A stretch of DNA of 64,000 nt from an uncultured Atopobiaceae bacterium (GTDB taxonomy: Bacteria; Actinomycetota; Coriobacteriia; Coriobacteriales; Atopobiaceae): contig CANQOF010000011.1 in NCBI GenBank assembly GCA_947625405.1, positions 6,926-70,925 on the forward strand, given 5' to 3'. Shown here in pieces: positions 9,710 to 52,249 of this stretch; the stretch's first letter is position 1; every line of letters starts with the position of its first letter. The position numbers and the translations under genes are program-made. The notes under the pieces are model-generated. The model was not told the DNA's origin. It saw only the letters and a list, made by a program, of their open reading frames with translations, and ran no database searches.

Positions 9710-9730
9710 TCCACTCGACGCTGCGACACT

Positions 9731-10166
9731 CTGGTGCACCTCATCCAGCCACGATCTCGGGCGCTCGAGTAGCGAAGTACGCTACCCTCTCAAGTTTGCT
9801 TGGGAGGGTAGCTCGCGTTTTAGACCTGCGTTGCGTTGCTTTCACAACAACCCACTGGGTTGTTGTGCCCCCGAGATCTTGTCTATCTGAGGCACCCCAG
9901 GGCGCCTCGCTGACGTTTAGCTGGTTCCCTAGCTCTTCGCTTGTTGGAGCAAGGACTTTCGAGGGTCCGGGAGCCTATGGTCTCCGGCTCCCTGTGGGAG
10001 CCGCGTTGAGAAGGCCCTTTTTCTCGGACCTCAGGAGTGGTCCGCCGGAATCAAAGCCCGTATGCCAATGTGAGGTGTGTCACCCGAGAAAAAGGGCCGG
10101 TGAAGGCTGGTGAACCGATCGAGCGGGAGCCGGGAGACGGAGACCATAGGCGCCCGGGCCCCGCAT
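9731..10166 (+). repeat. structured noncoding element, copy 1 (candidate large ncRNA or mosaic hairpin repeat)
   Basis: Homologous in reverse complement to 52250-52730. It contains nested hairpins: GTAGCG/CGCTAC, CACAACAACCC/GGGTTGTTGTG, GGCCCTTTTTCTCGG/CCGAGAAAAAGGGCC, and an outer roughly 30-bp stem spanning 9964-10160. Confidence 0.8.
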
Positions 10167-10237
10167 AACCTCGCATGACTCACCTGTGCGATGCGAGAGC
10201 GTCAGCGTAGACTGGGGACTGCGACTGAGGAGGACCG

Positions 10238-11110
10238 ATGATCAGGAAAGTTGGGTTCGTGGGGCTTGGGATCATGGGGAAGCCCATGGCGAGGAACCTG
10301 CAGAAGGCGGGGTTTGAGCTGCACATCTGGGCGCGGCACTCCGAGGAGGTCCAGGACCTCGTGGCGGGCGGCATGGCATGGCACGAGAGCCTCGCCGACC
10401 TCGCGGCCTCCGTGGACGCGCAGATCACGATCGTGGGCTTTCCGCCGGACGTCGAGCAGGTTTACCTCGAGAAAGGCGGCATCCTCGAAAGCGCCAAGCC
10501 CGGCACGTACGTGATCGACATGACGACCTCGAGCCCCACGCTCGCCCAGAAGATCGAGGCGGCCGCCACCGCGCGAGGCCTGCACGCCCTCGACGCGCCC
10601 GTCACCGGCGGCGACACCGGCGCGCGGAACGGCACGCTCTCCATCATGGCGGGCGGCGCCGAGGAGGACTTCGAGGCGTGCCTGCCGCTCTTCAAGGCCA
10701 TGGGCACGAGCATCAGCTATATGGGCGGCCCCGGCTTCGGCCAACACACGAAGATGGCGAACCAGATCATGATCGCGGGCGCCATTGCGGGGGTCTGCGA
10801 GGGGCTCTCCTACGCGCAGGCCAAGGGCATCGAGCTCCAGAAGATCTTCGACGCCGTGAAGGAGGGCTCGGCCGCGGGCACGCAGCTCTCGGGCTACGCG
10901 CCGCGCATCATCAAGGACGACTGGGCGCCCGGCTTCAAGATCGAGCACTTCGTGAAGGACCTCCGCATCGCGCGCCGCGAGGCGGAGAGCGAGCACCTCG
11001 ACCTCGACATGATGCGCCAGGTGCTCCAGAACTACGAGAACCTGATCCTTCGCGGCATGGGCGCAAACGGCACCCAGGCGCTCATCAAGTTCTACGAGAG
11101 CGGCGACTAG
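10238..11110 (+). CDS. NAD(P)-dependent oxidoreductase, 3-hydroxyisobutyrate/2-hydroxy-3-oxopropionate reductase family
   Basis: VGFVGLGIMGKPMARNL is a Rossmann motif. There is full-length resemblance to the HIBADH/GarR family. GAGGAGG lies 5 nt upstream. Confidence 0.85.
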   Translation: MIRKVGFVGLGIMGKPMARNLQKAGFELHIWARHSEEVQDLVAGGMAWHESLADLAASVDAQITIVGFPPDVEQVYLEKGGILESAKPGTYVIDMTTSSPTLAQKIEAAATARGLHALDAPVTGGDTGARNGTLSIMAGGAEEDFEACLPLFKAMGTSISYMGGPGFGQHTKMANQIMIAGAIAGVCEGLSYAQAKGIELQKIFDAVKEGSAAGTQLSGYAPRIIKDDWAPGFKIEHFVKDLRIARREAESEHLDLDMMRQVLQNYENLILRGMGANGTQALIKFYESGD

Positions 11111-14422: not shown

Positions 14423-17400
14423 CTAGGCGAGGCTCACGCCGGGCATGAGGGCGTACCACTTCACGCCCTGGTACTCCCAGCCAGCATCCTCGAGCGTGTC
14501 GATCTCGTTCATGTCCATGGTCCAGAGGTGCGTGCCCTCAGTCACGTAGGGGTTGAAGAACTGGACGATCGGATAGAGCGAGTTCTCGGTGTCGCTGTAG
14601 AAGACGGGCGTCTGGCCGTCGGTGGTCTCGAAGTCCTTGACCCAGCCAAGCTTCACGAGGCCCGCGATTTCCTCGGTGTTGCTCGTGTAGTAGTGGTCGT
14701 GGCTGTACGGGTTGTAGAGACGATAGACCGGGTCACCCGCGGCAGGCGAGTACCAAGCGATGCCATCGGGGCGCCAACCGGCGTTCAGGTTCGCCGTGAT
14801 CTCATTCTGTGCGGTGGTGAGCAGGTGCTCGCCGTTGTACGGGTTGTAGAGACGCATCACGGCAACCGGCGCGTCTTCAGCCACGCCGTCAATGGTAAGC
14901 GCGCCCTGCAGCTTCACGGGCGAAGTATCCGCCTGGCCCGCTTCGTTGATGTACACATTCATGTTGTAGATGCCCTGTGTGGAGTTCTTACCAGTGTTCA
15001 CAGGGATCGAGATCACGAAGGCGCCATTGCTCACGTCGGAGACGGTTATATCACCGAAGGTGACGCCATTCATGGTGCCAGAGTAACCACCATTGGTGAC
15101 GGGTGCGCCAGTTGAGGTGTAAGCAAGCCAGATGTTGCTCACATACTTGTCACTGGTCGAGCCCTTAGCCGTCATATTCACTGCCTTGCCAACCTCGATC
15201 ACCGAAGGATCAAGATTGATGTCAGTGATTTTGAGGCCTCGGTAGGGTGTCATGTTATTGGGCGCAAGTTTCACCGTCACAGGCACGGTGTAGGTTGCGG
15301 TTTCGCCAGCCATGATGGTTTGCGGAGAGCCCTCGAGCACGCCGTTGGTGATGTCGACGTCAAGCACACCGTAAACGGCCGCGTAGGTTACGTTTGCATT
15401 TGCGGTCGGAACCTCAGTGAGAGGATCAGCCAGCACGGGAACGGTCGCATCGGTAGCAGAGTTGATCTGATACCAGCCGAGGAAGAACGAAGCTTGCGGA
15501 TTCACGGTTGGGAGAGCGGCCACAGGCACGTTTTTGGAGGTGTCGGTGATGCTGGGGATGCCATTGAGGATGGTGTCGCCACCAGGCTCGGTGAAGTATA
15601 CGCCGATATTATCGTTCTCGTAACCAAACGCACCAGCTTCCGCCTTGGTCACGGTTGGGCTTTCCGCAGGCTGTGCAGTGGCACTGGTGCCATTTGCATT
15701 GAAGGACACCTGATAGGAGACCGGGATCGGATTCATGGTCACGCCGAGACTGCCCTCAGGATAAAGGCCGGTAATTGCGAGATTAGGGGCCTCATCGGTC
15801 GCGAGCGTAAGGGGCACGGTGGTGCCGGTGAACTTGTTGGTAAGCGCGAAGGCCGCCTTTGCGTTGTTCACGGTAACCACGGTTGGGCTCGATCCGCTGT
15901 TTATCCCGTTGAAGATCGTTGTTACGTCATTAGCAGCTGCGCCGGCAACGTTATCAGCCAGCGGATACGTGCTGTTTTGGAAGCTCGGGGCCATCTTGGC
16001 AGAGTAGGCGAAGACGTTTGTGAGGTCGGATGTAGACGTCGTTACGGAAACATTGTTGGCGACCACATAGCCATTGGGCATGGGGCTAGAGCCACTAACG
16101 AGAGTTGCACCCTTGGAAGAATTTGCCGGGGAGACCGTGGCGACGAAGCTTACGATCGGGTTCGGCATGATGACGACTTGGTTGTAGACAGGTGCGGTAA
16201 GGGCAGTATCCTCCGCGCGGCCAGCATAGTCGTAGATCTCCATGGGGAGGACGGGCTGGGGCTTCTCAGCGGTCGCAGCCGAAGCAGCGTTCGTGCCGCC
16301 GGTCACGTAGACCCACTTGTAATTGGAAGCCGCATTAGGAGTGTCCTGCACGGTGTCCGGAGTGATGGTGCTGCTAATCGCCTTCGAGCCCGCGGAGGTG
16401 TCCGTGGTGCTCACGGTGAGAGTCGGGCCGCCATTGGCGGAACGAGAGGCGTTTGAGACCGCGACGGTGCCCTCGATCCCGTAGCCAGGCGTGCTGTCAA
16501 CGGTAGAGGCGGTGGGAGCTCCACCGGAAGCGACGAGGGTGCCGCCACTTGCAACCACGTTGCCCTTGATGGCAGTTGCGGTCGTGGAGGTCGCCTCAAC
16601 CGTACCCGCGGCGAGGGTGAGGTTCCCGCTAGTCACGGTAGTGGCTATACCGGGAGCATCCACGGAGAGGATCCCCTCCGTGTTATCGCCGTTCACGCTT
16701 GTGCCAACACTAATGGCGTTAGCAGAAGTAAGACCGGTGCCGCTACCAGCGGTCACGTCTACCTCCACGGAGCCGCCGTTTGCCACGACGAGCGAAGTGT
16801 CAGCATCAGATACCGCAGTTAACTTACCGCTCAGGTTTACACCGTTCACGCTGAGGGTTTCCGCCTTCGTGCCTGTAGGTGCCGTCACGTTGGCCGTCAC
16901 CTCAACCGTTCCACCGTAGTTGGCAAGAGCGGTCGCACTCACGAGGTTTGTAATATTAGCATTCGGGTTGGCGGTCACGGAAAGGCTCGCGCCCGTAGCA
17001 GGCGCATCCGCGGTGCCGAGGAGGATCTCGTCGGCAGTGAGGGCGGCCATGTTACCGGTGCCCGTGAGCTCGATGCTCATACTGCCGTTCAGGACGAGAT
17101 TACCGGTTCTGCCGAGATCGACGGCAGGACCTCTAACGCTCGGGGACTTTACGGTGCAGTTAAGGGAGGAACCAGACTGAACGGTTACAACATTCCCGTC
17201 CTTGCTTCCTTCAACGAGAGCAGGACCGCTACCTGTATTGTTGAGGGTAACGGTTGCGTCGGACTTCTTGCCGCCCACAGTGAGCGTACCGGTGCCGAGT
17301 GCAAGGGAGCCCACGCTCCCGCCACTCATGCTGGCGGTGAGATCGAGGGAATCCGCGACGACGATGTCCGCATTCCCGGAATTGTTGATAGCAGCATTCG

Positions 17401-17890
17401 AGCTATTGGTGCTGGTGAAGGTCGCCGTTCCGGTACCACCAAGGGTCACGTCGGCATTGTTCCCAATAGCGAGTGCAGTCCCACTGGTGGTGAGGTTAGT
17501 GGTGCCCTCGAAGTTCACAAATGTGTCCACTGAGCCGTTGATATTGATAAGCGTGTTCGAGCTCGTGATGCTCCCGAGATTCGAGAACGTGATCGGGTTC
17601 GTGGCAGCATTCGCACCATTAAGCGCGATGGTGATCGCGCTTTGCGTCTCGCCCGCAATTGGCGAAATCGTGATGCCGGTAGATGGAACACTCGTAATGT
17701 TCGTGGCGCTAGTGATGCCGCTAGGAGCCTCTTCAGTCCCAGTGGCAACGATGTACCAACCGCCGTCCTCAAGCGGAGACATAGTCTCCGCTGGGTCGGC
17801 TACGGCCGGGGTGGCGACCACGACGGCTGCGAAGAGGGCCAGCAGCGCGGCGAAGACACCCCCAAATACCTTTTTCTTATTGGAACTCAT
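14423..17890 (-). CDS. large secreted Thr/Ser/Ala/Gly-rich surface protein A with three C-terminal YNPY...GW repeats
   Basis: The signal peptide MSSNKKKVFGGVFAALLALFAAVVVATPAVA|DP is near-identical to that of protein C. The long low-complexity T/S/N/G-rich region fits beta-helix or adhesin style. The C-terminal roughly 145 aa hold three tandem repeats RLYNPY..H..T......GW. AAGGAA lies upstream of the ATG at 17890. Confidence 0.8.
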   Translation of the reverse strand: MSSNKKKVFGGVFAALLALFAAVVVATPAVADPAETMSPLEDGGWYIVATGTEEAPSGITSATNITSVPSTGITISPIAGETQSAITIALNGANAATNPITFSNLGSITSSNTLININGSVDTFVNFEGTTNLTTSGTALAIGNNADVTLGGTGTATFTSTNSSNAAINNSGNADIVVADSLDLTASMSGGSVGSLALGTGTLTVGGKKSDATVTLNNTGSGPALVEGSKDGNVVTVQSGSSLNCTVKSPSVRGPAVDLGRTGNLVLNGSMSIELTGTGNMAALTADEILLGTADAPATGASLSVTANPNANITNLVSATALANYGGTVEVTANVTAPTGTKAETLSVNGVNLSGKLTAVSDADTSLVVANGGSVEVDVTAGSGTGLTSANAISVGTSVNGDNTEGILSVDAPGIATTVTSGNLTLAAGTVEATSTTATAIKGNVVASGGTLVASGGAPTASTVDSTPGYGIEGTVAVSNASRSANGGPTLTVSTTDTSAGSKAISSTITPDTVQDTPNAASNYKWVYVTGGTNAASAATAEKPQPVLPMEIYDYAGRAEDTALTAPVYNQVVIMPNPIVSFVATVSPANSSKGATLVSGSSPMPNGYVVANNVSVTTSTSDLTNVFAYSAKMAPSFQNSTYPLADNVAGAAANDVTTIFNGINSGSSPTVVTVNNAKAAFALTNKFTGTTVPLTLATDEAPNLAITGLYPEGSLGVTMNPIPVSYQVSFNANGTSATAQPAESPTVTKAEAGAFGYENDNIGVYFTEPGGDTILNGIPSITDTSKNVPVAALPTVNPQASFFLGWYQINSATDATVPVLADPLTEVPTANANVTYAAVYGVLDVDITNGVLEGSPQTIMAGETATYTVPVTVKLAPNNMTPYRGLKITDINLDPSVIEVGKAVNMTAKGSTSDKYVSNIWLAYTSTGAPVTNGGYSGTMNGVTFGDITVSDVSNGAFVISIPVNTGKNSTQGIYNMNVYINEAGQADTSPVKLQGALTIDGVAEDAPVAVMRLYNPYNGEHLLTTAQNEITANLNAGWRPDGIAWYSPAAGDPVYRLYNPYSHDHYYTSNTEEIAGLVKLGWVKDFETTDGQTPVFYSDTENSLYPIVQFFNPYVTEGTHLWTMDMNEIDTLEDAGWEYQGVKWYALMPGVSLA

Positions 17891-18230
17891 ACACAGGTTC
17901 CTTTCGTTCAACTGTTCTGGTCGTCCACCTAGCAGAGGCGACCATGTGTATGGACGTGCAAAAAGAAGCTCTTAGGGTTCTCGCGGCGATGGATCCCCAC
18001 GCGTCCGCACACCCCCTTCCGCGGTGGCGTGGACACCCGGCCCGCGAGGCTTATGGGGAATACACGACGTGAATGGAGACGCGCTCACGCGAAGCGCCGT
18101 GGCGCGGCATGCGCCACGAGTCGCCGCGAAAGCGCGAGGGAACCGCTGGTTTTTGGAAGATTTAGCGCCGCGAAGATTCGACAGCAGAAACGGAGCCAAG
18201 ACCCCTTCGGTTCTCAGCTCTTCTGAATGA

Positions 18231-18240
18231 CCCCCCCCCC
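18231..18240 (-). promoter_or_regulatory. G10 homopolymer (C10 on the + strand) in the conserved upstream box of gene A
   Basis: Exactly 10 C at 18231-18240, about 340 nt upstream of the ATG at 17890. The homologous position upstream of gene C has 9. Confidence 0.85.
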
Positions 18241-18558
18241 GCGAGCAAATCGCGAGGTAGGCGGGCATGATGCTCCTAGCTCGCACCATGACCGTTACTG
18301 TCCTCCTAGCATGTAAGGACCGTAATCGCTTGCGAACTCTAGCCCACGTAAGGGAGCGACGTCAAGCAACACGCCCGCCGAGCGGCGATTTCAGGGCACG
18401 GGGAGAGGGAGCGAAAGATTGCAAGGTAGCCGCAAAACAACCGCAACGCTTCCAGACGAACCGCACCATTTGCACTTAGTCTGCGCGAGGCCAGATGACT
18501 TTCTTGCCAGGCGAGACAAAGCAGAAAAACCCAGCCGGCGAATGCCGCGTGGCTCCCC

Positions 18559-20787
18559 CTACGAAGCGCGGAGGGTGGCGTAGAAGGCTACGTCCTCTTG
18601 CCGCCAGCCGAGGGTGGGGAGCACGGCGTACTCGTGGGGGTCGGCGGTCCAGTGGTGGGTGCCGGTAGTCTCGTAGGGGTTGAAGAGCTGGTAGACGGGC
18701 GTGGCGCTCGCACTCTCGCCGAAGAAGAGGGCCTCGCCCCCGTTGTCTGCGATCCAGCCGAGAGCCGTGAGGCTCTCCACCTCGGCTTTCTTCGTGGTGT
18801 AGTAGTGGTCGTAGTTGTAGGGGTTGTAGAGGCGGTAGACGTCCACGGGCCCCTCGACGGGCGCGTAGAAGGCGGTCCCCTCCTCCTCCCAGCCGCGGTT
18901 CACGTTCGCGCGGACCTCGGCCTGGTCGGTCGTGAGGAGGTGCTGGCCGTTGTAGGGGTTGTAGATCCTGAAGACGGTGACGCTGTCCTCGGGCGCGGCC
19001 ACGGAGCCGCCCTCGAAGACGGCCGTGTACACGGGCGCCGTCTCGCCCTCGGCGAGGACGACGGAGTACGGGCTCTGCGTGCTCACGATCGTGCCGTACT
19101 GGTTCTGCCAGCCGCGGAAGGTGGAGCCGTAGGGCTCAGTGACGGCAATGAGCGAGTATGTCTTCACGCCGTCCGCCGCCACGGCGATGCGCTGCGAGAC
19201 GCTGCCGAGGCCGTTGACGTTCACGGGGAGCGGATGCACGAGCGTGCTCGGGGCGCCGGGCGCGCCGGCGTCCGCCGCGGCGGAGGTGGGCCAGTAGGTG
19301 TAGGGCGCCTCGCCGCTCGCCGCCTCGGCCACGACCTCGATCTTCGAGTTCAGATAGCTCGTCTCGAGCGTGGAGGAGAAGTGCCCGGTGGAGACGTCGA
19401 TCGTCCCGCTCGCCGCGGGCGCGCTCGGCAGGGCAGCCTGGTACTGGCCGGATTGGTAGGCGATTGCGGGGATGCCCTCGGCGGCCACGAAGGTGCCGCC
19501 CGTGATGGCGCAGCTGCCCGCGCTCGCCGACGGCTGCGCGTAGCCCCGTTGCGCGCTCACGACCACCGCCGCCGGCACGTAGGCGATCTCCGCGCTCGAG
19601 CCCTCGGCCGTGGCGTCGCCCACGTTCACGGGCGCGCTCGAGGTGGCGGTGATGCCGCCGTTCGAGATGGCGAGCGTGGTGCCGAGCGAGACGATGCCCG
19701 CGCCGCCCGTGACGCTTCCGCCGGAGATGGTGCACTGGCTCGCCACGGACGCGCCCTCGGCGCTCGTGAGGCACATGCCGGCGCCCGCCGTGCCGCCCGC
19801 CACGGAGCCGCCCGTCATGGTGATCTCGATCACGCCGTCCGCACCGCCGAAGGTGGCGATGCCCGCGCTCGGGCCAAAGACTGAGCCGCCCTTGAGGAGC
19901 GCGATGTCCGCGCCGCCCGAGAGCGCGAGGCCATAGCCCGCCGCCTGCGCCGCCGGCACGCCGACGGTGCCCGCGTTCATCGTGATCGCGGCCTCGCCGT
20001 AGAGGCTGATCGCCGCGGAGCACTCCCCCGTTGCCGTCGCAACGCCCGTGAGGGCGCCCGCCGTGCCTCCGCCGGTGATGGTGCCGCCATCGAGCGTGAG
20101 CTCGCCGTAGCCGTCCATTCCGTAGGCGCTGCCGGCACGCGCGCCCTGCCCGAGGCAGATCGCGGAGCGCCCGCTCGTGGCGCTCACGTTGCCGGCTTTG
20201 AGCGCGAGCGCGGACACGCTCTCGTCCTCGTACATCACGCCGGGCACGAGGATCGCGTTGCCGTTCGCGGGCGCCGTGACGCTCGGGCCGTCGAGCGTGA
20301 GCGTGGGAGCGTGCTCCTCGCGCCCCGGCTCCTCCATGCCGAGCACGATCGTCGCCGGCACGGGGGTGCCCGGCGCGCCCGCGGAGGCGTTCGCGCTCGA
20401 GACGGTGCCCGCGCCCTTGAGCGTGAGGCTTCCCGAGGAGACCACGATCGCCGAGCGGCCCGATGAGGCCGTGAGGTTCTTGCCCGCGAGGTCGAGCGTG
20501 AGCGCGCCCTCGCCAAGCTTGAAGTCGAGCGCGGAGCTCGTGAGCACAATGTCGTCCGTGAGCGTGACGACGGCGCCGTCCTCGCTCGCGGTGGCCTTGT
20601 CGCCGAGCAAGCTCACGAGGCTCGCGGCGTCCGTGACCTCACCGCCCGCGACGTCGGTCGTCATGGGCGAGGCCTCGCGCGCCACGGCCGGGCGCGCCAC
20701 GAAGATCGCGAGAAGGGTGGCAAACACAGCAAACACGGCGAACACGCTGAGCGCGCTCGCCGCGAGATTCCAGGTAGTGCGTTTCAT
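18559..20787 (-). CDS. secreted Ala/Gly/Ser/Thr-rich surface protein B with three C-terminal YNPY...GW repeats
   Basis: Signal peptide MKRTTWNLAASALSVFAVFAVFATLLAIFVARPAVA. The body is G/A/S/T-rich and repetitive. The C-terminal triple repeat is IYNPYNGQHLLTT...GW. GGAGGAG lies upstream of the ATG at 20787. Confidence 0.8.
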   Translation of the reverse strand: MKRTTWNLAASALSVFAVFAVFATLLAIFVARPAVAREASPMTTDVAGGEVTDAASLVSLLGDKATASEDGAVVTLTDDIVLTSSALDFKLGEGALTLDLAGKNLTASSGRSAIVVSSGSLTLKGAGTVSSANASAGAPGTPVPATIVLGMEEPGREEHAPTLTLDGPSVTAPANGNAILVPGVMYEDESVSALALKAGNVSATSGRSAICLGQGARAGSAYGMDGYGELTLDGGTITGGGTAGALTGVATATGECSAAISLYGEAAITMNAGTVGVPAAQAAGYGLALSGGADIALLKGGSVFGPSAGIATFGGADGVIEITMTGGSVAGGTAGAGMCLTSAEGASVASQCTISGGSVTGGAGIVSLGTTLAISNGGITATSSAPVNVGDATAEGSSAEIAYVPAAVVVSAQRGYAQPSASAGSCAITGGTFVAAEGIPAIAYQSGQYQAALPSAPAASGTIDVSTGHFSSTLETSYLNSKIEVVAEAASGEAPYTYWPTSAAADAGAPGAPSTLVHPLPVNVNGLGSVSQRIAVAADGVKTYSLIAVTEPYGSTFRGWQNQYGTIVSTQSPYSVVLAEGETAPVYTAVFEGGSVAAPEDSVTVFRIYNPYNGQHLLTTDQAEVRANVNRGWEEEGTAFYAPVEGPVDVYRLYNPYNYDHYYTTKKAEVESLTALGWIADNGGEALFFGESASATPVYQLFNPYETTGTHHWTADPHEYAVLPTLGWRQEDVAFYATLRAS

Positions 20788-20879
20788 GAGCGGGGTCCTC
20801 TCCTCCAGCACGCACATAAAGGAAGGGCCTCGCTGAGCGCACGCTCAACGAGACCCTTCTCGCTAGGTTGAGTCCTCGC

Positions 20880-21105
20880 ATTCAGAGGACCGGAACCCGA
20901 ACTCATACCCTAGGGTCGAGCGTGCATAGGCCCTAGGAGGCGGGGGTCCGTCGACCCCCGCCTTGAACGTTCTCCGCCCGGGCGTAGCTGGCTGCTAGGG
21001 AAGCGAAGCGCCGAGCGGTCGATCGACGGGGATAGAGCAAAGGGTGGCGGGGGCTCGGGAGAGAGTTCCCAAGCTTTCCGGGCCCCCGCCTTGGGGACGC
21101 TAGCG
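20880..21105 (-). repeat. conserved 3' region of surface-protein genes, copy C
   Basis: Homologous to 14100-14420 with the same two GC-rich hairpins. Confidence 0.6.
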
Positions 21106-21110
21106 AGCCC

Positions 21111-24100
21111 TTAGAGGTTCGTTCCGGGGTAGGAGGCGAACCACTTCGGACCCTCGTTCTTCCAACCCACGGACGGGTTGATGAGCGAGGCGACCTCGAC
21201 GGTGTTGGTGGTCCAGAGGTGCGTACCAGAGGTCACGTACGGGTTGAAGAGCTGGAACACCGGATAGAGCGAGCTCTCGGTGTCGCCGTAGAAGACGGGC
21301 GTCTGAGTGCCGTCGGCGTTCACGAAGTCCTTCTCCCAGCCGAGGGTGACGAGGCTATTCACCTCGGCCTCATCGGTGGTGTAGTAGTGATCGTGGTTGT
21401 ACGGGTTGTAGAGACGATAGACAGCCTGGCCGTCGGCGGGAGCGAACCACGCGATGTCCTCGGGGAGCCAACCGGCGGTGAGGAGCGCGAGAGATTCATT
21501 TTGCACGGTGGTGAGCACGTGTTCGCCGTCGTACGGGTTGTAGTAACGGATGACCGCGATGTCCGCATCAGCGGCAACGCCATCGATGTTGAGAACACCT
21601 TGGAGAGTCGTGCCGTCTGTCGCGCTTAGACCATTGAGATTGAGCTTCACATTTACCTGATAGGCGCCCTGTGAAGCGTTTCCACCAGTCATAACGGGGA
21701 TGTCAAGCGTGTAGGTTCCCTCGGCTTCGCCGGCGGTAAGGCTCGGCTCGCCGAGCTGCACACCGTTCATTTCGCCATTGTCGGTGCCGGTACCGTAATT
21801 AATGGAATCATCACTGATGATGCTCTTACCATGATTCTGAATTTGAACCACGGAGGGATCGATTACGATCGCGGGCTCCTGAGTCTGAACGCCTGCAGGA
21901 GAAGGATTGATGTTGATTTTTAGCGTAGCGGTGTAGCTCCCACTCTCACCCGCCATGATGGAGATCGGGGAATTCCCAAGCACCAGATTCTTATTAACGA
22001 GCTCGAACTTTCCGTATAGCGCGTAATTGATAGTGTTTTGCGTGACCGGAGCTACCTCAGTTAGCGGTTCGGGGCCGTAGATATCTTGCCCGTCCTTGTT
22101 GAAGCTATGGGTGTACCAACCAAGCACGTAGGAGTTGTTATCCGCAACGATCGGCAGGTCGGTAACTTCAACAGATTCGACAGACTCGCTGCTCGGATCA
22201 GGAACGTTGTAGACCATGTTGCCAGTGCCAGGCTCAGTAAAGTAGATGCCCTGTGAGCCACCCTTGTTCCCGAAGTCGAGTACCACCGCATCCTTGTTAG
22301 TAGGATCGGGAGCAGGCTGGGAAACAGGATTGCTGGTTTGGCTGTTGAAAACCACCTGATAGGAAACGGGGATATTGGTTGCGCCCACAGTTGCCTTGTC
22401 GTAGAGTGCATCGACCACAGCGCTGCTCGAAAGATCAGCAACGGTCGTGGAAGCCTTCGTAGCAAGGCTTACTGAAGGCTCGGCGCCAGTGAGATTACCC
22501 GTCACCCAAACGCCATTTCTCAGAGTGGAAAGCGTTTGCTTGTTTGCGACAGCGCCAGCCGGCTGAGTCGCGATGCTCGAGCTTGGATCAGCAACCGTAC
22601 CCGCGTTCACACCCTTGGCAAGCGGATACGAGATGTTGTTGCTGAAGGCACCGGGGATAATGGTTACATCGTAGACATAGCCATCAGAGGCACTGCTCAC
22701 AGAGCCGATGTTCGCGACCATGTAGCCGTCAGGCATATTGAGGTGGTCTGCAGAGCCGTAAGAATTAGAAGCAGGAGTAATGCCGAGCTCCCAAGAAGTC
22801 ACCTTGGCAGGTTCAATCGTGAGGCTATTCCCTTGAGGCGTTACCGTAGCGCCCGTGCCCTTTTCATCGCCATCCATTCCAGCAAAACCATAGATCCTGG
22901 TTTCAAGTGCCGCCGGAGGAACGGCGTCAGGACCGGGCTCTTCATCAGGATCGGGAGCAGGCTTGTCCATGCCACCACCGGCATAGGCAACCCACTGATA
23001 ATTCTGGATCTCACTGGTACTCGGGACTGATTTTACAGTAATAGAATCACCTGCAACGGCAGGAGTGGCAGCAAGCGTGGAGATGTCACCCGCTTGGACG
23101 TTTACGGTTGGGCCATCGCTATTCGCAAGCGTGTTGGAAACCGTAAGAGTGCCACTGATGCCGCTTTGGGGAGTGTTTTCCACACCATCGAGGTAGGACG
23201 GGGTTACACCACCAGTGGCAGTGAGTTCGCCACCAGTAACTGTGACGTTCCCATCAATGCCAATACCAGCGCTCGAGGTTGCCGTCACGGAGCCATTGGC
23301 AAGAGTCGGATTGCCCTTGATGGCGGTCCCAGCAGAGGTAACCGTGAGGGTTCCCGCACTTGTAGCGCTTCCCACAGTCACGGTCCCCGCAGTCAGACCC
23401 ACTGTTTCAACACCAGAAGCGTTGCCGGTGGTAATGGTGGCGGAACCGTTAAGGGTGAGGGGACCTTCACCCAGATTCACATTGTCGGAGGCCTGACCAG
23501 TCGTCGAAGCGTTGAGGCTGCACCCCTTGGCAACGGTCATAGTCAGACTCGTAGCAGTGATGCATGGACCGTTTGTATTGCTCACGGTGAGGGACGGGGT
23601 GTTGGGATAGGTTGCCCCAGTTTCACTTGTTGGATCCGTAACGGCAGAATTGGCGCCCACATTGAGCGTAGAGGTCCCCATGGCCATAGCAGGGGTAGCC
23701 GCCACGTCTGTAGTTGCGGAGAGGGTGCCCGAACCCGTGAGGGAAACGCTCACACTAGACGCGTTATTTGCAACAGAGAAAACCGTCCCGTTGTTTGAAG
23801 ACGTGAACGAGTTACTACCCACAAGGTTAATGGTGAACGTGTTCTCCCCACCATCCGACCCGAGCGTAAGAGGCGTGGCCGTTGCATTGCTGGGGACACT
23901 CGCCGTAATCCCATTGAGGGTAATCACGGAGCCGGTGGCGCCCGATTGAGGAGCGATCACGAGAGGCAGCGTCGGTGTACCAGTTATCTGAACGGTAATA
24001 TCCGTAATGCTACTTGAAGGCTTCACGGTAACCGCTGTACTACTTTCCTCAATAAGGTCAGAGACATCCGCATCCTTATTGCTTGTTTGGTAGATGCCAT

Positions 24101-24236
24101 AACCCTGCTTGGAGGTGACATCCATCTCACCTGCCGGGTCGGCTACCGCCGGCGTGGCGACTACCACGGCGGCGAAGAGGGCAAGCAGCGCTGCCAGCGC
24201 TCCCGCCCAGATCTTCTTCTTAGGACTGTGGCTCAT
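21111..24236 (-). CDS. large secreted surface protein C, paralog of A, with three C-terminal YNPY...GW repeats
   Basis: The signal peptide MSHSPKKKIWAGALAALLALFAAVVVATPAVA|DP, a T/S/N/G-rich body, and a C-terminal module about 70% identical to that of A. AAGGAG lies upstream of the ATG at 24236. The track start at 24623 adds an Arg-rich non-protein-like extension. Confidence 0.8.
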   Translation of the reverse strand: MSHSPKKKIWAGALAALLALFAAVVVATPAVADPAGEMDVTSKQGYGIYQTSNKDADVSDLIEESSTAVTVKPSSSITDITVQITGTPTLPLVIAPQSGATGSVITLNGITASVPSNATATPLTLGSDGGENTFTINLVGSNSFTSSNNGTVFSVANNASSVSVSLTGSGTLSATTDVAATPAMAMGTSTLNVGANSAVTDPTSETGATYPNTPSLTVSNTNGPCITATSLTMTVAKGCSLNASTTGQASDNVNLGEGPLTLNGSATITTGNASGVETVGLTAGTVTVGSATSAGTLTVTSAGTAIKGNPTLANGSVTATSSAGIGIDGNVTVTGGELTATGGVTPSYLDGVENTPQSGISGTLTVSNTLANSDGPTVNVQAGDISTLAATPAVAGDSITVKSVPSTSEIQNYQWVAYAGGGMDKPAPDPDEEPGPDAVPPAALETRIYGFAGMDGDEKGTGATVTPQGNSLTIEPAKVTSWELGITPASNSYGSADHLNMPDGYMVANIGSVSSASDGYVYDVTIIPGAFSNNISYPLAKGVNAGTVADPSSSIATQPAGAVANKQTLSTLRNGVWVTGNLTGAEPSVSLATKASTTVADLSSSAVVDALYDKATVGATNIPVSYQVVFNSQTSNPVSQPAPDPTNKDAVVLDFGNKGGSQGIYFTEPGTGNMVYNVPDPSSESVESVEVTDLPIVADNNSYVLGWYTHSFNKDGQDIYGPEPLTEVAPVTQNTINYALYGKFELVNKNLVLGNSPISIMAGESGSYTATLKININPSPAGVQTQEPAIVIDPSVVQIQNHGKSIISDDSINYGTGTDNGEMNGVQLGEPSLTAGEAEGTYTLDIPVMTGGNASQGAYQVNVKLNLNGLSATDGTTLQGVLNIDGVAADADIAVIRYYNPYDGEHVLTTVQNESLALLTAGWLPEDIAWFAPADGQAVYRLYNPYNHDHYYTTDEAEVNSLVTLGWEKDFVNADGTQTPVFYGDTESSLYPVFQLFNPYVTSGTHLWTTNTVEVASLINPSVGWKNEGPKWFASYPGTNL

Positions 24237-24661
24237 ACACAGTCTCCTTTCCTTGGTTCCTTTGACACCCCCACCTAGCGAAAGGGGCGCTATTTCCTGA
24301 GAGACGGTTCCTTGGGGATGCGCTCCCCTGAACTGCGCGGCCCTGCCGCGCGCCTCACGCAAAGGGGCGTCCCCTCTGCCGGATGCGCGCGCTGCGGGCT
24401 CCTCCCACTCCTGGCCCGCGGGCTTGATGCGCGACGACCTCGCTCCGCGCGCTTCCTTGGGAATGGCGAGCGCGCGGCTGTGCACACGAAAACGCGCCCT
24501 CGAGCGAGCGGAGTTGGGCGCGCGTGAACGCGCACGCGGAATCGCTCGCGAGAACGCCGGAAACTGCCGAGTGGGATACGAATTGAGGGTGCTGCTCGAG
24601 GCTCTCTCGCCTCGACACGACAAAACAGACTAGGGGCCTCTCGCCTTCTAGCCTATGACGA

Positions 24662-24670: not shown

Positions 24671-24953
24671 GCGCTAGCCCGCGGGAAGAGAGCGGTTTAG
24701 ATGCCCTAGCAAGCACCATGCCGCGTAAGAGTCCCTCCTAGCAAAGGTCTCCTTCGAAGCGGGAGCTTAAGCCAACCCCGCCGCGCGGTCAAATCTCCCC
24801 CGCCGAACGCGCGGCTTTTGACACGGATTCGTTACGTCGCGCGGCGGCGGGGGGCGCCACTTAGGATGGATAGCCGGCGAATGCCGAATGGTTCATCTCC
24901 CCAGGGAGCTGTGCTGCGTGGAGGAAACGTGCTTTGGCGAATGAGCGATGACG

Positions 24954-25092
24954 GCGCGCTATACTGGAACGCGGAAAACGGCAAGGCCCGCGTGTGGTTA
25001 AAAAGGGAGCGGGCGGCGCGGTTTCGTGAGGGAGACGGAGTTCCTACCTCCGTCTCCTCTTTTGTGCCCTGCGTCTCCGCACGGAGCGTTTC
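24954..25092 (+). repeat. 137-bp direct repeat, left copy (DR-L), flanking the low-GC island
   Basis: Aligns with 28692-28828 at roughly 88% identity by eye. It contains TATACT (24960-24965), the hairpin GGAGACGGAG/CTCCGTCTCC (25031-25057) followed by TCTTTTG, and a relic of the C-terminal codons KRSVRRRRAQKRRRR* on the minus strand. Confidence 0.85.
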
Positions 25093-25099
25093 ATACCAG

Positions 25100-25132
25100 C
25101 CATCTGGCTCTGCGCGGCGCAGAGCCAGATGG
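25100..25132. promoter_or_regulatory. perfect 16-bp-arm palindrome at the inner edge of DR-L
   Basis: CCATCTGGCTCTGCGC-G-GCGCAGAGCCAGATGG, followed within 20 nt by CTCTTTTTG. It could be a terminator, an operator or a recombination site. Confidence 0.6.
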
Positions 25133-25237
25133 TCTAGGCCTTGCCGCTCTTTTTGTGAGCTTTTGCATGTGAGAGTTTGGATCTCGTGGGCGCACTATCA
25201 TCACTCACATAAGCTCGCACCATTGAAATGCATCGCC

Positions 25238-26779
25238 ATGGACGTCATCAAACGCATTCTCCATAAGCTTGATGAGCTTAAACACGTCTCTGACCTCGCC
25301 GCGTATTGCTATCTCGAGGTCACACGTACCGTGCATGATGAAACTTCTTTTCTCGGCGGGTACTGGATGTCGGGAACTCACGTCTCTAATCCGAACCTAC
25401 CCAATCTCAAGCGCCTCGGCTACGACATATCTCGATGCGTTAAGCCCATGGACTTCTATGAGAGGGGTCGGGTGCGCCGTTTACTCGAAGAGTTCGAGGA
25501 AACGGGTATCAAGCCCTACCGAGTCCCCGGGCTTCAAGATCCGGACTACAACGAAGCGACCATTCCATGGGCTGTTCTTTGGGGGCTCAGCGAGGGAATT
25601 GCAAGTCGTCCGGAATATGGCGAGCTACACCGCATTCAACCCCTCAACGAATACGGCAAAGAGAAGGTGGGGGTTTATCTCGCCCCGCACGATTCCTTCA
25701 TCTGCGACATCCTTCGGGAGCGCAAGGTCCAACGAGTGCCAGATGGCCGTCTCAACGAGATGCTTCGCGGACTTGCGCTCTATCCCCGAAGCGAACTCAA
25801 GACCATCGAATACCCCAAGATCAAGACCATCGCGAACATGGAGAATCCTGGAAGAGAGCCGATCCTCAAGATCGGCCTTTGCCAGCTCACCGCCGCACCG
25901 ATCTTCACGTTCGATGGTGAAGACGAAAGCGCCTTCATGGATTTTCGCCACATCGGTGGCGGACTCTTTGATGTGCACTATGGGAGAGACTTCGAACAGC
26001 ATGCGTACCTGAACGTCGTCTCGCCACTCATCGACGCGATCGAGGCGGGCTGCGAAATCGTCGTCTATCCAGAACTTGCGATGTCCCCTCAGCTGCTCGA
26101 GGCGGTGAAGGCGTTCCTTTCGAACCCCGAACACGACAAGAAGGCCCTCAAGCTTGTGGTGGCGGGGAGCGGACGCCCGGGCAATGAACGCGACAACGTG
26201 TGCACCTTGCTCAAATGCGACGGCGAGGTGCTGGGTACGTGCCACAAGTTCAGCAAGTTCATCGATTTGGGGGATCCTCCCCTTGTGGAGCAGCTTGATC
26301 ATCCTGGCGCCACCAACACATTGGTAGACATCGCGGGCGTCGGGCGTGTGCTCGTGGGCATCTGCAAGGATCTCGCCTCAGACGGCGAACGAGTGACCCT
26401 CGAGATCGCCCACGCACTCAAGCCGCAAGTGGTATGCGTACCCGCCTTGAGCCAGTCCGTCGACAAGGCATTCTCAATCGCGCTTCACGAACTCACGGTT
26501 CGCAAGCACGCAATCGGTTGCGTCTGCAACCTCTGCGCCGCTCGCAAACAATACGGGCAGAGTGAGGTAGGCGTGAGCTGCGTTGCCTCGTTTGAATTTT
26601 GCGGCGCTCGTGGGAAGGCCTTGGACTGCCAGATCCACTCGATCACACGCCCAAAAGGCGCACAGGCCGAATGCGCGCAACGATTGGGAGGCTGCATGAG
26701 GGTGGTTTCACTTGATTTCAACGGACCGCTGGGGCCGCGAATCCTCAGCAATCCCTGTCCCGCGCGTATCCAAAACTAA
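25238..26779 (+). CDS. fusion protein: unknown N-terminal domain (about 205 aa) plus carbon-nitrogen hydrolase (nitrilase superfamily)-like domain
   Basis: The C-terminal roughly 300 aa follow the C-N hydrolase pattern. The blocks are KIGLCQL, EIVVYPE (E279), CHKFSKF (K337), VLVGICKDL (C376) and VVCVPA. G+C is visibly lower than in the flanks. The ATG at 25238 has no obvious SD, so the start is uncertain. Confidence 0.6.
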   Translation: MDVIKRILHKLDELKHVSDLAAYCYLEVTRTVHDETSFLGGYWMSGTHVSNPNLPNLKRLGYDISRCVKPMDFYERGRVRRLLEEFEETGIKPYRVPGLQDPDYNEATIPWAVLWGLSEGIASRPEYGELHRIQPLNEYGKEKVGVYLAPHDSFICDILRERKVQRVPDGRLNEMLRGLALYPRSELKTIEYPKIKTIANMENPGREPILKIGLCQLTAAPIFTFDGEDESAFMDFRHIGGGLFDVHYGRDFEQHAYLNVVSPLIDAIEAGCEIVVYPELAMSPQLLEAVKAFLSNPEHDKKALKLVVAGSGRPGNERDNVCTLLKCDGEVLGTCHKFSKFIDLGDPPLVEQLDHPGATNTLVDIAGVGRVLVGICKDLASDGERVTLEIAHALKPQVVCVPALSQSVDKAFSIALHELTVRKHAIGCVCNLCAARKQYGQSEVGVSCVASFEFCGARGKALDCQIHSITRPKGAQAECAQRLGGCMRVVSLDFNGPLGPRILSNPCPARIQN

Positions 26780-26838
26780 ACGATCACTTAACTTTGGGTA
26801 ATAATACCGCCATTACCCATTGAACCATGAGGTGAACG

Positions 26839-27708
26839 ATGGACTACGATCCCAAGGTCCTCTTCCAGGAAGTGCTCGACGACCTTGAAGCAAACAAGCC
26901 CCTCGAAGAACGCCAATTTCGCCTTATCTACGACTACACCTGCGATCTCATGCGCAACAAGCGCTCGATGGAGCCTTATGTGCAGAACGTGTGCCAACGC
27001 GTGATAAGCGCCTACGACCTCCATGAAGACGAGATCCGCGCCAAGTCCAACAGCTTCGACTGGGCCGCGGTGTGGGCCGCCTTCTCCATGCTTGAGCAGT
27101 ATCGCCGCGATCTCAGGCAAGACGCGAGGGATGTGGAGCGAATCGCCGTCGTGCGGAACTACCTCGATCTCTTCGAGGCGATCGATGCCAATCCCTGGTG
27201 CAACCAGCGGGCACTCGCCGAGATACTCGGCAAGTCCGCGGGCGATATCTCGCAAAAGCTCGAGAAGATTCGTCGGGTTGACGATCTCATACATGAGATT
27301 TCCTCGGGCAGGGAGAAGTTCTACAGCCTCTCTGAGACAGGCGCGAGGATCCTCAGCGAGCAGCGCCACAAGGCGGAGGCAGGCGTCAGCCTCCCTCTCA
27401 GGCTGGGCGGCGTCCGCTCCCCGCTCAGCGTGAGGTATCACATTGACGTCGGCCTCCATGAGGCCAAGATTACGCGATACGACAAGACCGGCAAGGCGAA
27501 ACCCCACATCGTTATGGTCCACCCTGCGCTTTCTAGCCCAGTTCGTAGCGAATCCGCGCAGGGTCCAAAGGTACAGGCAACAACTGATGCGATGAAAGTG
27601 GGCGCGGGACTTGATTCAACAAGCATGGTGCGCATCCAACCCGTCGAAGACACGCCGGCAAGAGATATGCGTGAAGCCGCTCATTTCTTGAAGGGACAAA
27701 AGCGATGA
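26839..27708 (+). CDS. winged helix-turn-helix (MarR/ArsR-like) domain protein
   Basis: The central segment NQRALAEILGKSAGDISQKLEKIRRVDDLIHEISSGREKFYSLSETG has an HTH-plus-wing pattern. GAGGTGA lies 5 nt upstream of the ATG. The stop overlaps the next start (ATGA). Confidence 0.6.
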   Translation: MDYDPKVLFQEVLDDLEANKPLEERQFRLIYDYTCDLMRNKRSMEPYVQNVCQRVISAYDLHEDEIRAKSNSFDWAAVWAAFSMLEQYRRDLRQDARDVERIAVVRNYLDLFEAIDANPWCNQRALAEILGKSAGDISQKLEKIRRVDDLIHEISSGREKFYSLSETGARILSEQRHKAEAGVSLPLRLGGVRSPLSVRYHIDVGLHEAKITRYDKTGKAKPHIVMVHPALSSPVRSESAQGPKVQATTDAMKVGAGLDSTSMVRIQPVEDTPARDMREAAHFLKGQKR

Positions 27709-28283
27709 GCTATGCGGATACGTTGCCAAGCGAAGCTAAGGTGAAGGATTGGCTTTCGCAGATCCAGAGTGCGAGCAAAGAGGAACGCGCCGGCGAGATC
27801 CTTCGCCACGTCGTGGAACACCACCATTGCCAACTTACGAATACCTCTCCTGATGAGGATTTGGAAAGGCTCGAAGCCTTGCAGGATTCGGGGATCGTAC
27901 GCTGCGTTCTTTCCACCATTCAGCGCCTTGAGCTGCTGAACCCCGAGGCTCAGGTGTTCTACGTGAGCCTTGCTGATTGCCTGCTGAGCGATTCTCTTTT
28001 CCCGAGCGAGGAAGACAAGACTGCGGCACTCGTCCTCATGGTGAGCTATCCATCGTTGCCCTACCACCGCTACGAGCCTGTGACGCTCAATAACGTTGAG
28101 CTCGTAGAGCGAAGAGCGGAGCTCGAAGATACGCTCGATGAGCTTTGGAGGCTCTCGCAGCGACAATTCGGACGACAGATCGATTTCTGTGCCGCGTATC
28201 TCAGCGTTGTCGCGCGTTTCGATGATCTAGCCGATCGCGCAATCCTCATGTCGGAGATCGTAGAGCGTAGCTACGAGAGCTAG
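27705..28283 (+). CDS. hypothetical protein (predicted helical, acidic), translationally coupled to the wHTH gene
   Basis: ATGA start/stop overlap at 27705-27708. The 192-aa sequence is protein-like and I recognise no motif. Confidence 0.55.
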   Translation: MSYADTLPSEAKVKDWLSQIQSASKEERAGEILRHVVEHHHCQLTNTSPDEDLERLEALQDSGIVRCVLSTIQRLELLNPEAQVFYVSLADCLLSDSLFPSEEDKTAALVLMVSYPSLPYHRYEPVTLNNVELVERRAELEDTLDELWRLSQRQFGRQIDFCAAYLSVVARFDDLADRAILMSEIVERSYES

Positions 28284-29070: not shown

Positions 29071-29136
29071 TTTCGTATGATTGGGGCGTGAGATGGCGGG
29101 AGCGATTGGGGCTCCTTGGGCAGAGAGTGGTGGTCT

Positions 29137-32558: not shown

Positions 32559-32846
32559 GAGTGCCTCCGAACGTGCGACGGTTGCGCGCAGCCGCCTCGT
32601 GCGCGCGGCCGCGTGGCCTATTGTGCCGCAGAGCGCACTCGCGCAAAGCGGGCACAAGACACGCAGGATTCGGGTAGAATGAGTGCAACCGCAGAACCCG
32701 CTACTCTGCTTTAGTCGCTACGCGGGCGACGCTTGTGAGGCCGGGCTGCACCCCGGCCTCGCGCGTGTTTGGCGCGGTTGCTTCGTCGCCACCACCACCC
32801 ACTCACAAGTAGACTGAAACGCGGGGTCTTTGCGAAGGAGGGCGTC

Positions 32847-34305: not shown

Positions 34306-35238
34306 CTACTGCACGAGCTCGCCGATGGTGATCTCGGCCTGCGCGAGGAGGTCCGCGAGATAGGCGTCCCACGCGTCGAGCCCGGGCGCGTAGTCCCGCA
34401 CCTGCTGGCTGTAGGCCACGTAGTAGGCCTCCATGGCTTGGTCGTAGGTGGCGCCGTCGATGGAGAAGACGTCGTTTGCCATCACGGCGTAGTACGGGTT
34501 GTCGCGATTCGCCCAGGTGTTCGTGCCGTTATCCCAGTTGTCGCCGAGGAGCCCCACCACGTAGGCGCCGTACTCGGCGGTCGGCGTGCCCTCCTCGCCC
34601 GCTTCCGGCACGGGCGGAAGTTCGGGCACGCTCGCGCGCGATCCATCGACGTGCGTGCCCACGACCTTCTCGTAGAGGAGCTCGACGCCCGCGCCCTCGG
34701 CGAGCATCTGCTCGAACTGCTCCTCGCTCATCGAGTACTTCTCGGCGAGCGTGGAGACGTCCTCCGAGCCGAAGACCTGCTGTTTATAGCTCTCGATGTC
34801 TTGATCGCCCACCTCGATGCCCTCGTCTTCCACGGCGCCTTGGAGGAGCTGGTTGCGTGCGACGTTCAGGATGGTCTCGGCGGAGGGCATGGGGTAGGTG
34901 CCGTCCTCGTTTTGCTGGCTCTCGAGGCTCGCGGTGGATTCGAGCGCCTCGCGCGCGGTGATCTCGTGGATGGCGTTTCCGAGCGTGTAGCTCGCCACCG
35001 TGGAATCGAGCTCTTCGGAGGTGATGCTCGTCTTCTCGTGGAGGTAGGCGATCTCCTCCTTCGGGAAGAAGAAGCCCACGAGCGCGCCCGCCGCGAGCCC
35101 GAGCACGAGGGTGAGGATGAACACCCATACGGGGATGCCGTGACGCTGCCTCTCCGGCGGCTCCTGGGCGGGGTACTGCGGGCCGGCGCCCCAGCCCTGG
35201 CCCTTCGGGTCTTCCTCCACCAGCATGTGGGACGGCAC
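34306..35238 (-). CDS. membrane-anchored protein with a SurA-N/chaperone-like extracellular region (hypothetical)
   Basis: A single TM segment (IPVWVFILTLVLGLAAGALVGFFF) is followed by an acidic helical region. GTG at 35238 has GAGGAGG 6 nt upstream. Confidence 0.55.
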   Translation of the reverse strand: MPSHMLVEEDPKGQGWGAGPQYPAQEPPERQRHGIPVWVFILTLVLGLAAGALVGFFFPKEEIAYLHEKTSITSEELDSTVASYTLGNAIHEITAREALESTASLESQQNEDGTYPMPSAETILNVARNQLLQGAVEDEGIEVGDQDIESYKQQVFGSEDVSTLAEKYSMSEEQFEQMLAEGAGVELLYEKVVGTHVDGSRASVPELPPVPEAGEEGTPTAEYGAYVVGLLGDNWDNGTNTWANRDNPYYAVMANDVFSIDGATYDQAMEAYYVAYSQQVRDYAPGLDAWDAYLADLLAQAEITIGELVQ

Positions 35239-40809: not shown

Positions 40810-40853
40810 TCAACCTCGTGTGGCGGTGCCATGCGCTCGGGCGTTTCAGCCGC

Positions 40854-52244: not shown

Positions 52245-52249
52245 CCCCC

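Follow-up and report, generated by a model that had tools for sequence, protein, structure and literature searches.

Palindromic Intergenic Repeats of Two Probable Families at the 3′ Ends of Genes in Atopobiaceae From the Rabbit Gut

Introduction

Small palindromic repeats shape the intergenic regions of bacteria, but only in a few cases is it clear how such a family spreads. The closest known system to the repeats reported here is that of the REPINs, which can adopt either a long hairpin or a clover, show frequent compensatory changes and leave singlet remnants (PMC3116915). Here we analyse a stretch of 64,000 nucleotides from an uncultured Atopobiaceae bacterium (assembly GCA_947625405.1, contig CANQOF010000011.1, positions 6,926 to 70,925), called the window in the following, which contains two diverged copies of an intergenic, hairpin-rich element of about 500 nt. 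The element is a composite of two foldback repeat families, which we designate FB1 and FB2.

The ERIC (or IRU) sequences of enterobacteria are imperfect intergenic palindromes of about 127 bp that are often transcribed and occur in either orientation; their mobilising agent is unknown. Their sequence is strongly conserved between species while their locations differ, and variants with internal insertions or deletions occur. The BIMEs of E. coli and the pneumococcal BOX elements are intergenic mosaic clusters of hairpin modules that vary in number, order and orientation, include duplications of boxB and are found in 3′ untranslated regions (UTRs); BIMEs are bound by proteins such as IHF or gyrase. 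Miniature inverted-repeat transposable elements (MITEs) have conserved terminal inverted repeats matching an insertion sequence and are flanked by target-site duplications (TA in the case of Correia). When transcribed, MITEs and the Correia elements of Neisseria can supply terminators and RNase III substrates.

Like ERIC, FB1 and FB2 are intergenic imperfect palindromes present in either orientation and with insertion or deletion variants, but they share no sequence similarity with ERIC (a blastn search of 5,426 E. coli genomes returned no match), and ERIC lacks an outer stem that co-varies freely while enclosing a long, fixed core. With BIMEs and BOX they have in common the organization as mosaic clusters of modules, the duplication of one module (module C here, boxB there) and the location in 3′ UTRs; the sequences are unrelated, and the modules found here are much longer hairpins. 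FB2 resembles MITEs and Correia elements in being short, non-coding, bounded by inverted ends and insertion-polymorphic, whereas its arms fall into three diverged classes with no other occurrence in approximately 480 kb of related sequence, and neither insertion-sequence-matched ends nor target-site duplications were found for it. The best reading is that the repeats belong to no named family and are restricted to one lineage, with REPINs, ERIC and BIMEs as their closest counterparts.

Results and Discussion

Two Foldback Repeat Families Form a Composite Unit

An initial annotation of the window had noticed that two of its regions are related in inverted orientation, and it had offered two interpretations, a single structured RNA of 440–480 nt or a REP/MITE-like mosaic of hairpins preserved by selection on their structure or by conversion between arms. 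Both blastn and alignment confirm that positions 9710–10235 (+), referred to as W1, are homologous to positions 52245–52755 (−), referred to as W2, across approximately 500 nt; no third copy is present inside the 64-kb window. W1 lies between the genes for a peptidase C69 (8198–9709, +) and an NAD-binding dehydrogenase (10238–11110, +). W2 is located between the gene for QueD/PTPS (52755–53216, −) and a convergent DUF2304 gene (51903–52244, +). Each unit consists of FB1, a spacer (module C), FB2 and a tail, in this order. FB1 is a rod hairpin of approximately 120 nt; FB2 has inverted arms of 26–44 nt that flank a core of approximately 140 nt and measures approximately 200–225 bp in total.

We consider it probable (at roughly 0.6) that FB1 and FB2 are two families of insertion-polymorphic palindromic DNA repeats, clustered in intergenic regions at gene 3′ ends within a narrow clade of rabbit-gut Atopobiaceae. 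This reading is built on directly observed properties, namely the existence of repeat families, their modularity, insertion polymorphism and free orientation, the strict Watson–Crick co-variation of the FB2 stem and the adjacency to stop codons.

Further copies were searched for with an exact 18-mer scan covering one genome per species, followed by a walk outward from the neighbouring proteins. The scan found true copies solely in two metagenome-assembled genomes (MAGs) of Atopobiaceae, one containing L004 and L007, the other L006, L008 and L015; hits in Adlercreutzia, Vibrio and other genomes were chance matches. The walk added L027 and L037. Looking up the QueD protein led to contigs of the same species, and an exact-protein look-up of the window dehydrogenase returned no record. 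The two copies known at the outset thus became nine FB2 copies from at least four genomes (W1, W2, L004, L007, L008, L015, L027, L037 and the partial copy L006), with at least three in the window organism and two to three in each of the two MAGs. The nearest relatives of the window are Atopobiaceae MAGs from rabbit, which, together with a raiA RNA and a Collinsella-1 RNA in the window, places the organism in the Coriobacteriia. A blastn search of the element against plasmids, phages and the E. coli genomes gave no match, JGI metagenomes scanned with two core patterns gave 0 hits for each, viral contigs scanned with three core patterns gave chance 16–17-mers or nothing, and nhmmer did not detect the element in the first ten viral loci.

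All nine FB2 copies are intergenic, and their neighbours are without exception housekeeping genes (peptidase C69, dehydrogenase, QueD, DUF2304, rplL, rpoB, PTS, LacI, Pth, ClC, UPRTase and MsrAB). In W1, W2, L007 and L008, FB2 has the same orientation as the gene upstream of it; in L004, L015 and L027 it is antisense to the genes on both sides, and in L015 and L027 it begins approximately 5–25 nt from a stop codon. The genes on either side of W2, L008 and L037 are convergent.

Occupancy of Two Orthologous Sites Varies Among Relatives

Several non-syntenic copies are present per genome, and at two orthologous sites relatives have either none of the repeats or another set of modules, as is expected of mobile repeats in general. 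At the first site, between the peptidase C69 and dehydrogenase genes, the window has a spacer of 528 bp with FB1, C and FB2. In L027 (neighbour protein 92% identical) the spacer is 370 bp long and contains FB2 alone, in the opposite orientation and with arms of a different class (class III, see below); this FB2 sits within another small hairpin, ACCTGCG/CGCAGGT. The loci L028–31 (neighbour protein 87%) have a 270-bp spacer with FB1, C and, of a class II FB2, the 5′ arm alone, which looks like a deletion remnant. In L032–35 (neighbour protein 81%) the spacer is only 157 bp long and has none of the modules.

At the second site, between QueD and DUF2304, there is no spacer at all in a relative (L040, 10450–10459; L041), since the 3′ ends of the convergent genes share 10 bp; the window has 510 bp of repeats here, consisting of FB1, two copies of C, FB2 and the tail. 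L042 has a 76-bp spacer with neither FB1 nor FB2, in which a reversed stretch resembling the A motif of FB1 (see below) abuts the DUF2304 stop codon as judged by eye. FB1 alone is present in L052 (forward) and in L049 (reversed). A more distant QueD locus, L053, has a different synteny and is uninformative.

The data also bear on the proposal of a single large structured RNA that takes up the whole stretch of 440–520 nt. In its favour, four unrelated loci (W1, W2, L007 and L008, with FB1 internally deleted in the latter two) have the order FB1-C-FB2, and the complete 536-nt stretches fold far better than shuffled sequences (z = −5.7 for W1 and −7.5 for W2). But the unit splits into parts that occur separately, FB1 alone in L052 and L049 and FB2 alone in L015 and L027. 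In L004 (7200–7720) an internally deleted FB1, C and FB2 occupy the rplL-rpoB spacer with the FB2 core inverted relative to FB1-C, and FB2 is found in either orientation relative to the flanking genes. In addition, C is duplicated in W2, L007, L008 and L004 carry internal deletions, W1 carries a private insertion, and neither a promoter, a terminator nor an Rfam match was found. We therefore regard a single large RNA as highly improbable. The REP/MITE-like mosaic is supported by the data, since the modules are independent, vary in order and orientation and are missing from orthologous sites, and since all compensations lead from one Watson–Crick pair to another.

The L004 copy shows that a hairpin with a stem of approximately 60 bp is tolerated within an essential operon, since this composite lies in the rplL-rpoB spacer, the place of the attenuator in E. 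coli. The FB2 core of L004 is antisense to transcription in this ribosomal protein/RNA polymerase operon.

The repeats also leave traces in the assemblies. The same-species contigs L036, L038 and L039 end at the same points inside module C, and L037 starts as W2 and then switches, at 723–934, to a different FB2 core copy and a different 3′ flank, in which the MsrAB gene follows. This is what a multi-copy repeat would be expected to produce and implies at least a third locus in the organism. The breaks are a direct observation; the repeats break or mis-join short-read assemblies. A mis-assembled orientation within inverted repeats is possible in principle; however, the perfect arm segments (26–30 bp) are shorter than the usual final k-mers.

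The FB2 Arms Co-vary and the FB2 Core Is Conserved

FB2 copy 1 spans 9949–10178 (+), including an imperfect extension of the outer palindrome. Its 5′ arm (9963–9992) and 3′ arm (10132–10161) enclose the conserved core (9993–10131), which contains a perfect 15-bp inner stem (10013–10027/10084–10098) and a loop that is 92% conserved across copies. FB2 copy 2 (52300–52522, −) has arms of 44 nt (52479–52522 and 52300–52343), a core at 52344–52478 and its inner stem at 52446–52460/52374–52388. W2 ends in a tandem duplication (52246–52334, −; period 41, 2.1 copies, 85% match) that takes in the last part of the FB2 3′ arm together with the tail and abuts the DUF2304 stop codon; the initial annotation had correctly described it as a 41-bp duplication at the distal end.

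Its other descriptive statements hold as well, apart from the details corrected below. The core was said to be more than 90% identical between the copies, and the inner hairpin (GGCCC...GGGCC) is identical at 80 of 86 positions (93%); the perfect closing stem of 15 bp is present in W1 and W2 alike. The outer stem, put at about 30 bp, comprises 30 nt in W1 (90% complementary) and 44 nt in W2 (86% complementary). At least four compensated positions had been proposed, and we count six fully compensated pairs in the 26-bp helix between W1 and W2. The 6-nt bulge (GAGACG) drawn in the outer stem of W1 is unneeded: the alignment of eight copies is in register there, with two mismatches, A·G and G·A.

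Co-variation was analysed with the eight full FB2 copies. Among the 26 pairs of the outer stem, 16 are changed on both sides and 0 on one side alone; 97% of the cells are paired, and none of 500 shuffles reached the observed values. Sliding the partner strand by a single column reduces the pairing to 56%. The mismatches that occur are A·G, G·A and A·C and never G·T, so that no G-U intermediate is seen, and every compensated change leads from one Watson–Crick pair to another with zero wobble pairs. Selection on an RNA helix would normally leave G-U intermediates. Since the changes are exclusively Watson–Crick to Watson–Crick, we take them to mean that the complementarity of the outer stem is kept at the level of the DNA.

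Conservation is distributed unevenly along FB2. The mean pairwise identity is 68% in the arms and 59% in a 12-nt linker, compared to 98–100% in the inner stem and 92% in the 57-nt loop. The inner stem is invariant at 14 of its 15 pairs and hence uninformative on RNA structure either way. The arms fall into three classes, each common to more than one genome: class I in W1 and L004, class II in W2, L007, L008 and L037, and class III in L015, L006 and L027. Each arm is itself a small palindrome with internal dyads (GGAG..CTCC, GGGGA..TCCCC and AGAACC-TAT-GGTTCT), and TATRGT is nearly invariant at its centre. At the arm centres (9975–9980, 10144–10149, 52494–52499 and 52323–52328 in the window), TATGGT, TATAGT or CATAGT is found in every FB2 arm while the rest varies. 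Judging from its sequence, this hexamer may be a −10-like element facing inward from both sides, or a protein-binding dyad.

Two sites in the FB2 loop (10027–10083; alignment columns 94–100 and 116–118) co-vary. TC occurs together with xAT in W1, L004, L007 and L027, and the remaining copies have GG or TG together with AGC, AGA or AAC, a pattern that is independent of the arm class. No consistent Watson–Crick scheme pairs the two sites.

Could the FB2 Core Be an RNA, a Switch or a Gene?

The contrast between the core (92–100% conserved) and the arms and linker (59–68% identity) raises the question whether FB2 is a multi-copy gene for a structured non-coding RNA of 140–200 nt with a long closing helix, perhaps released by RNase III through cuts within the perfect duplex, the repeat behaviour being that of a mobile or duplicated RNA gene. 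The predicted folds of the FB2 part are very stable compared to shuffled sequences (z = −5.6 for W1 and −7.8 for W2), and in seven of eight copies the plus strand folds better than the minus strand, by approximately 5 kcal/mol. Moreover, G-C pairs are changed to G-U in small junction hairpins of the plus strand, and all four composite copies are sense to the upstream gene. On the other hand, Rfam 15 yields no hit at the gathering threshold for either region, so the Rfam comparison proposed earlier assigns the element to no family; with E ≤ 10 it returns only chance miRNA and snoRNA hairpins far below threshold. No sigma-70-like promoter and no canonical terminator was called in either window region. 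Three of the seven oriented copies are antisense to both neighbours. There is no co-variation evidence for any helix of the core, because the inner stem does not vary, and an ACCUC/GAGGU helix is broken in the copies that carry GG. The sole helix that does co-vary has no wobble pairs, and its transition mismatches are A·C and not G·U on the plus strand. Taken together, we hold an RNA gene to be the main alternative, though an unlikely one.

SRP/Alu-like RNAs, domain V of group II introns, hammerhead ribozymes and attC sites were considered and dropped, since no defining feature or Rfam hit was seen. Retron msr-msd, IscB/TnpB guide RNAs and IS110 bridge RNAs were likewise discarded, the neighbours all being housekeeping genes and HEARO or other Rfam hits being absent.

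Inverted repeats of 26–44 bp around a conserved segment of approximately 140 bp are also the layout of an inverton, in which a recombinase would flip the core between the arms and turn a promoter on or off. The core is indeed opposite in W1 and L027 at the same intergenic site and inverted relative to FB1-C in L004; recombination within the arms would predict identical arms, and the nearly invariant TATRGT in the middle of each arm would suit such a switch. But L027 and W1 differ in arm class and flanks and are thus not two states of one switch, and the four composite copies with an intact upstream module C share the same core orientation (4/4). Because W2, L008 and L037 are located between convergent genes, nothing lies downstream that could be regulated. 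A sigma-70-like promoter was not found, nor is there a recombinase gene near any copy. An inverton is accordingly very improbable.

The initial annotation had considered the element non-coding, on the grounds that the only open reading frame (ORF; 9796–10113) is broken between the copies. It is not the only one, as a frame of 43 aa (GTG 10037 to TAA 10168) can be read through in W1 and W2 alike, and indels are absent there from every copy. Nothing supports coding, though. The GTG overlaps the only Shine–Dalgarno-like sequence of this frame (spacing zero), the other frames are broken by 1-nt indels between copies, and the variable sites are not third codon positions and are clustered in two loops and the 12-nt linker. 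The six frames, combined into a chimeric peptide query, found no match among 5.8 billion predicted proteins, and at 65% G+C chance alone is expected to produce long open frames. That the conserved core encodes a small protein is therefore scarcely credible. The FB2 core contains two Shine–Dalgarno-like runs, AGGAGTG (10032–10038) and GAGGTGT (10072–10078), with no start codon at a usable distance.

FB1 Is a Rod Hairpin That Follows Stop Codons

FB1 starts with the A motif GACGCTGCG, continues through imperfect arms to the apex GTAGCG-AAGT-ACGCTAC and returns to CGCTGACG, followed by UUUAG or UUUUG. The six copies with an intact rod fold as a single rod with −52 to −81 kcal/mol. The inner stem co-varies across copies (GGCG/CGCC, CGGC/GCCG, GACA/TGTC and GGCA/TGCC).

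FB1 copy 1 (9716–9921, +) runs from the A motif CGACGCTGCGACAC (9716–9729), 7 nt past the stop codon of the peptidase C69 gene, to CGCTGACG and TTTAG. Its imperfect arms are located at 9731–9764 and 9867–9900 and its conserved apical hairpin at 9769–9785. Beside the apex, W1 has a private insertion of 82 nt (9786–9867), which is missing in the orthologous FB1 of L028 and is made up of two hairpins (9781–9794/9799–9812 and 9843–9854/9856–9867). The second of these is the hairpin noted before as specific to copy 1; it has 12 bp rather than 11. Module C (9917–9948, +) connects the base of FB1 to the outer arm of FB2.

In copy 2, FB1 extends over 52618–52739 (−), with the A motif at 52727–52740, arms at 52643–52668 and 52691–52716 and the apical hairpin at 52669–52686. 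A partial duplicate of the A motif, GACGCTGC, overlaps the stop codon of QueD. Module C is present twice within 52523–52650 (about 52580–52650 and 52523–52567, −); blastn detects this duplication, in agreement with the initial annotation.

Measured from the last base of the stop codon of an upstream ORF with the same orientation, the A motif begins at −2 to +10 nt in seven of ten FB1 copies according to a script and in two more by eye (L052 and L004r); in three copies a TGA runs into the motif. Every FB1 that adjoins a stop codon is sense to the gene in question, and at the convergent QueD/DUF2304 site this is true of both orientations, the forward FB1 adjoining one stop codon and the reversed FB1 the other. 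Elsewhere in the window the A motif shows no enrichment, and the base 5′ of it shows a pyrimidine preference with no fixed base.

Because FB1 is sense to the upstream gene, adjoins its stop codon and ends in a U-rich tail, it most likely acts as a portable terminator or 3′-end hairpin. It shares with intrinsic terminators and REP-type 3′-end hairpins the G+C-rich hairpin, the U-rich tract, the sense orientation and the distance of at most 10 nt from the stop codon. It differs in its stem of approximately 50–60 bp (compared to 5–15 bp) and its short U tract (UUUAG in the window copies), and a consensus scan calls no terminator in the window copies of FB1. Also, the same FB1 sequence follows unrelated genes.

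Possible Mode of Spreading and Comparison With REPINs

FB2 shares many features with REPINs. It is extragenic and consists of two inverted small palindromes that are able to fold as a long hairpin or as a clover (PMC3116915). Compensatory changes on both sides, occurrence in clusters, the apparent lack of a target-site duplication and the lack of a transposase beside the copies are further points of agreement (PMC3116915). The singlet remnants that REPINs leave after asymmetric loss find a parallel in L028, which keeps the 5′ arm only. The differences concern the distribution of conservation, the length and the enzyme. Conservation in REPINs is highest at the REP ends, which enclose a short variable spacer, whereas in FB2 the arms vary (68%) around a 140-nt centre that is 92–100% conserved. 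FB2 is two to three times longer, we found no RAYT gene among the annotated window genes and the neighbours of the copies, and no conserved 5′ GTAG head could be shown. FB2 thus fails one defining feature of the REPINs, the conserved ends.

By analogy with what has been proposed for REPINs, FB2 might spread or be copied as DNA via a hairpin-forming single-stranded intermediate. Alternatively, ectopic gene conversion between FB2 copies, or conversion from arm to arm, could be the route. One arm would effectively be templated on the other, and the arms would need complementarity only to each other. A change in one arm would show in both without wobble intermediates, because one arm would serve as the template of the other. 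The core might be conserved as a cis-acting part needed for propagation, or because the host has come to use it. In this model we infer the mobilising enzyme, the hairpin intermediate, the action of FB1 as a terminator and the reason for the conservation of the core.

Several points weigh against interpreting FB1 and FB2 as insertion-polymorphic DNA repeats. Variable arms around a fixed middle reverse the pattern of MITEs and REPINs, which have conserved ends and a variable middle, and a purely selfish-DNA model leaves the very strong conservation of the core unexplained. Among the annotated window genes and beside all copies there is no transposase, RAYT, recombinase or reverse transcriptase, and FB2 arm sequences do not occur beside other genes in the approximately 480 kb of related sequence. 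At the approximate element ends we saw neither a direct repeat, as expected from a target-site duplication, nor a fixed target motif. The better folding of the plus strand is a weak hint of an RNA role. The adjacency to stop codons could in part reflect where insertions are tolerated, rather than a function. Finally, only nine copies are known, every one of them from a MAG or a metagenome contig, and the assembly of L037 may be chimeric.

A more far-reaching interpretation would make FB2 an undescribed mobile hairpin element. The core of approximately 140 nt would function, as RNA or as folded single-stranded DNA, as a recognition or catalytic module, and the arms would be regenerated from one another at each copying event, maybe targeting the apex of gene-end hairpins. 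FB2 would then be either a foldback element that templates itself or a mobile gene whose structured RNA is processed out of its perfect duplex. We consider this speculative and rather doubtful.

FB2 represents a natural experiment, with three arm lineages across species in which 16 of 26 pairs are compensated without wobble while the core hardly changes; the family also shows nesting in other hairpins and placement after stop codons. Should the core prove to be an RNA, or to act in cis in a new mechanism of copying, the known range of non-autonomous elements in Actinomycetota would be wider. Otherwise, FB1 and FB2 are a useful annotated repeat family that breaks metagenome assemblies of gut bacteria and can be mistaken for a large non-coding RNA.

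Other Features of the Window

A stretch on the minus strand (14423–24623) encodes three large paralogous proteins of 1162, 752 and 1170 aa, each with a terminal DUF5648 domain. Its G+C content is 0.56–0.61 compared to about 0.67, it adjoins unannotated ORFs (24818–28283), and a zinc-ribbon/RHS-repeat protein is encoded nearby (29116–30831). The stretch is a candidate variable island with cell-surface or toxin functions.

Positions 36082–36882 (−) encode a protein with an NYN domain and an OST-HTH/LOTUS domain, a predicted RNA-binding nuclease; its gene stands in a row of small genes, and two genes of this row (34306–35238 and 35269–36051) have no Pfam match. Between a CBAH/AAT-family gene and a PNPOx-like gene, a weak match to the Collinsella-1 RNA is located at 32622–32758 (+), with 37.3 bits compared to a gathering score of 35 and with large parts of the model deleted. 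A full-length raiA RNA is present at 40494–40756 (−; 133.5 bits, E = 1e-32), where it is overlapped by a long chance ORF (39279–40832).

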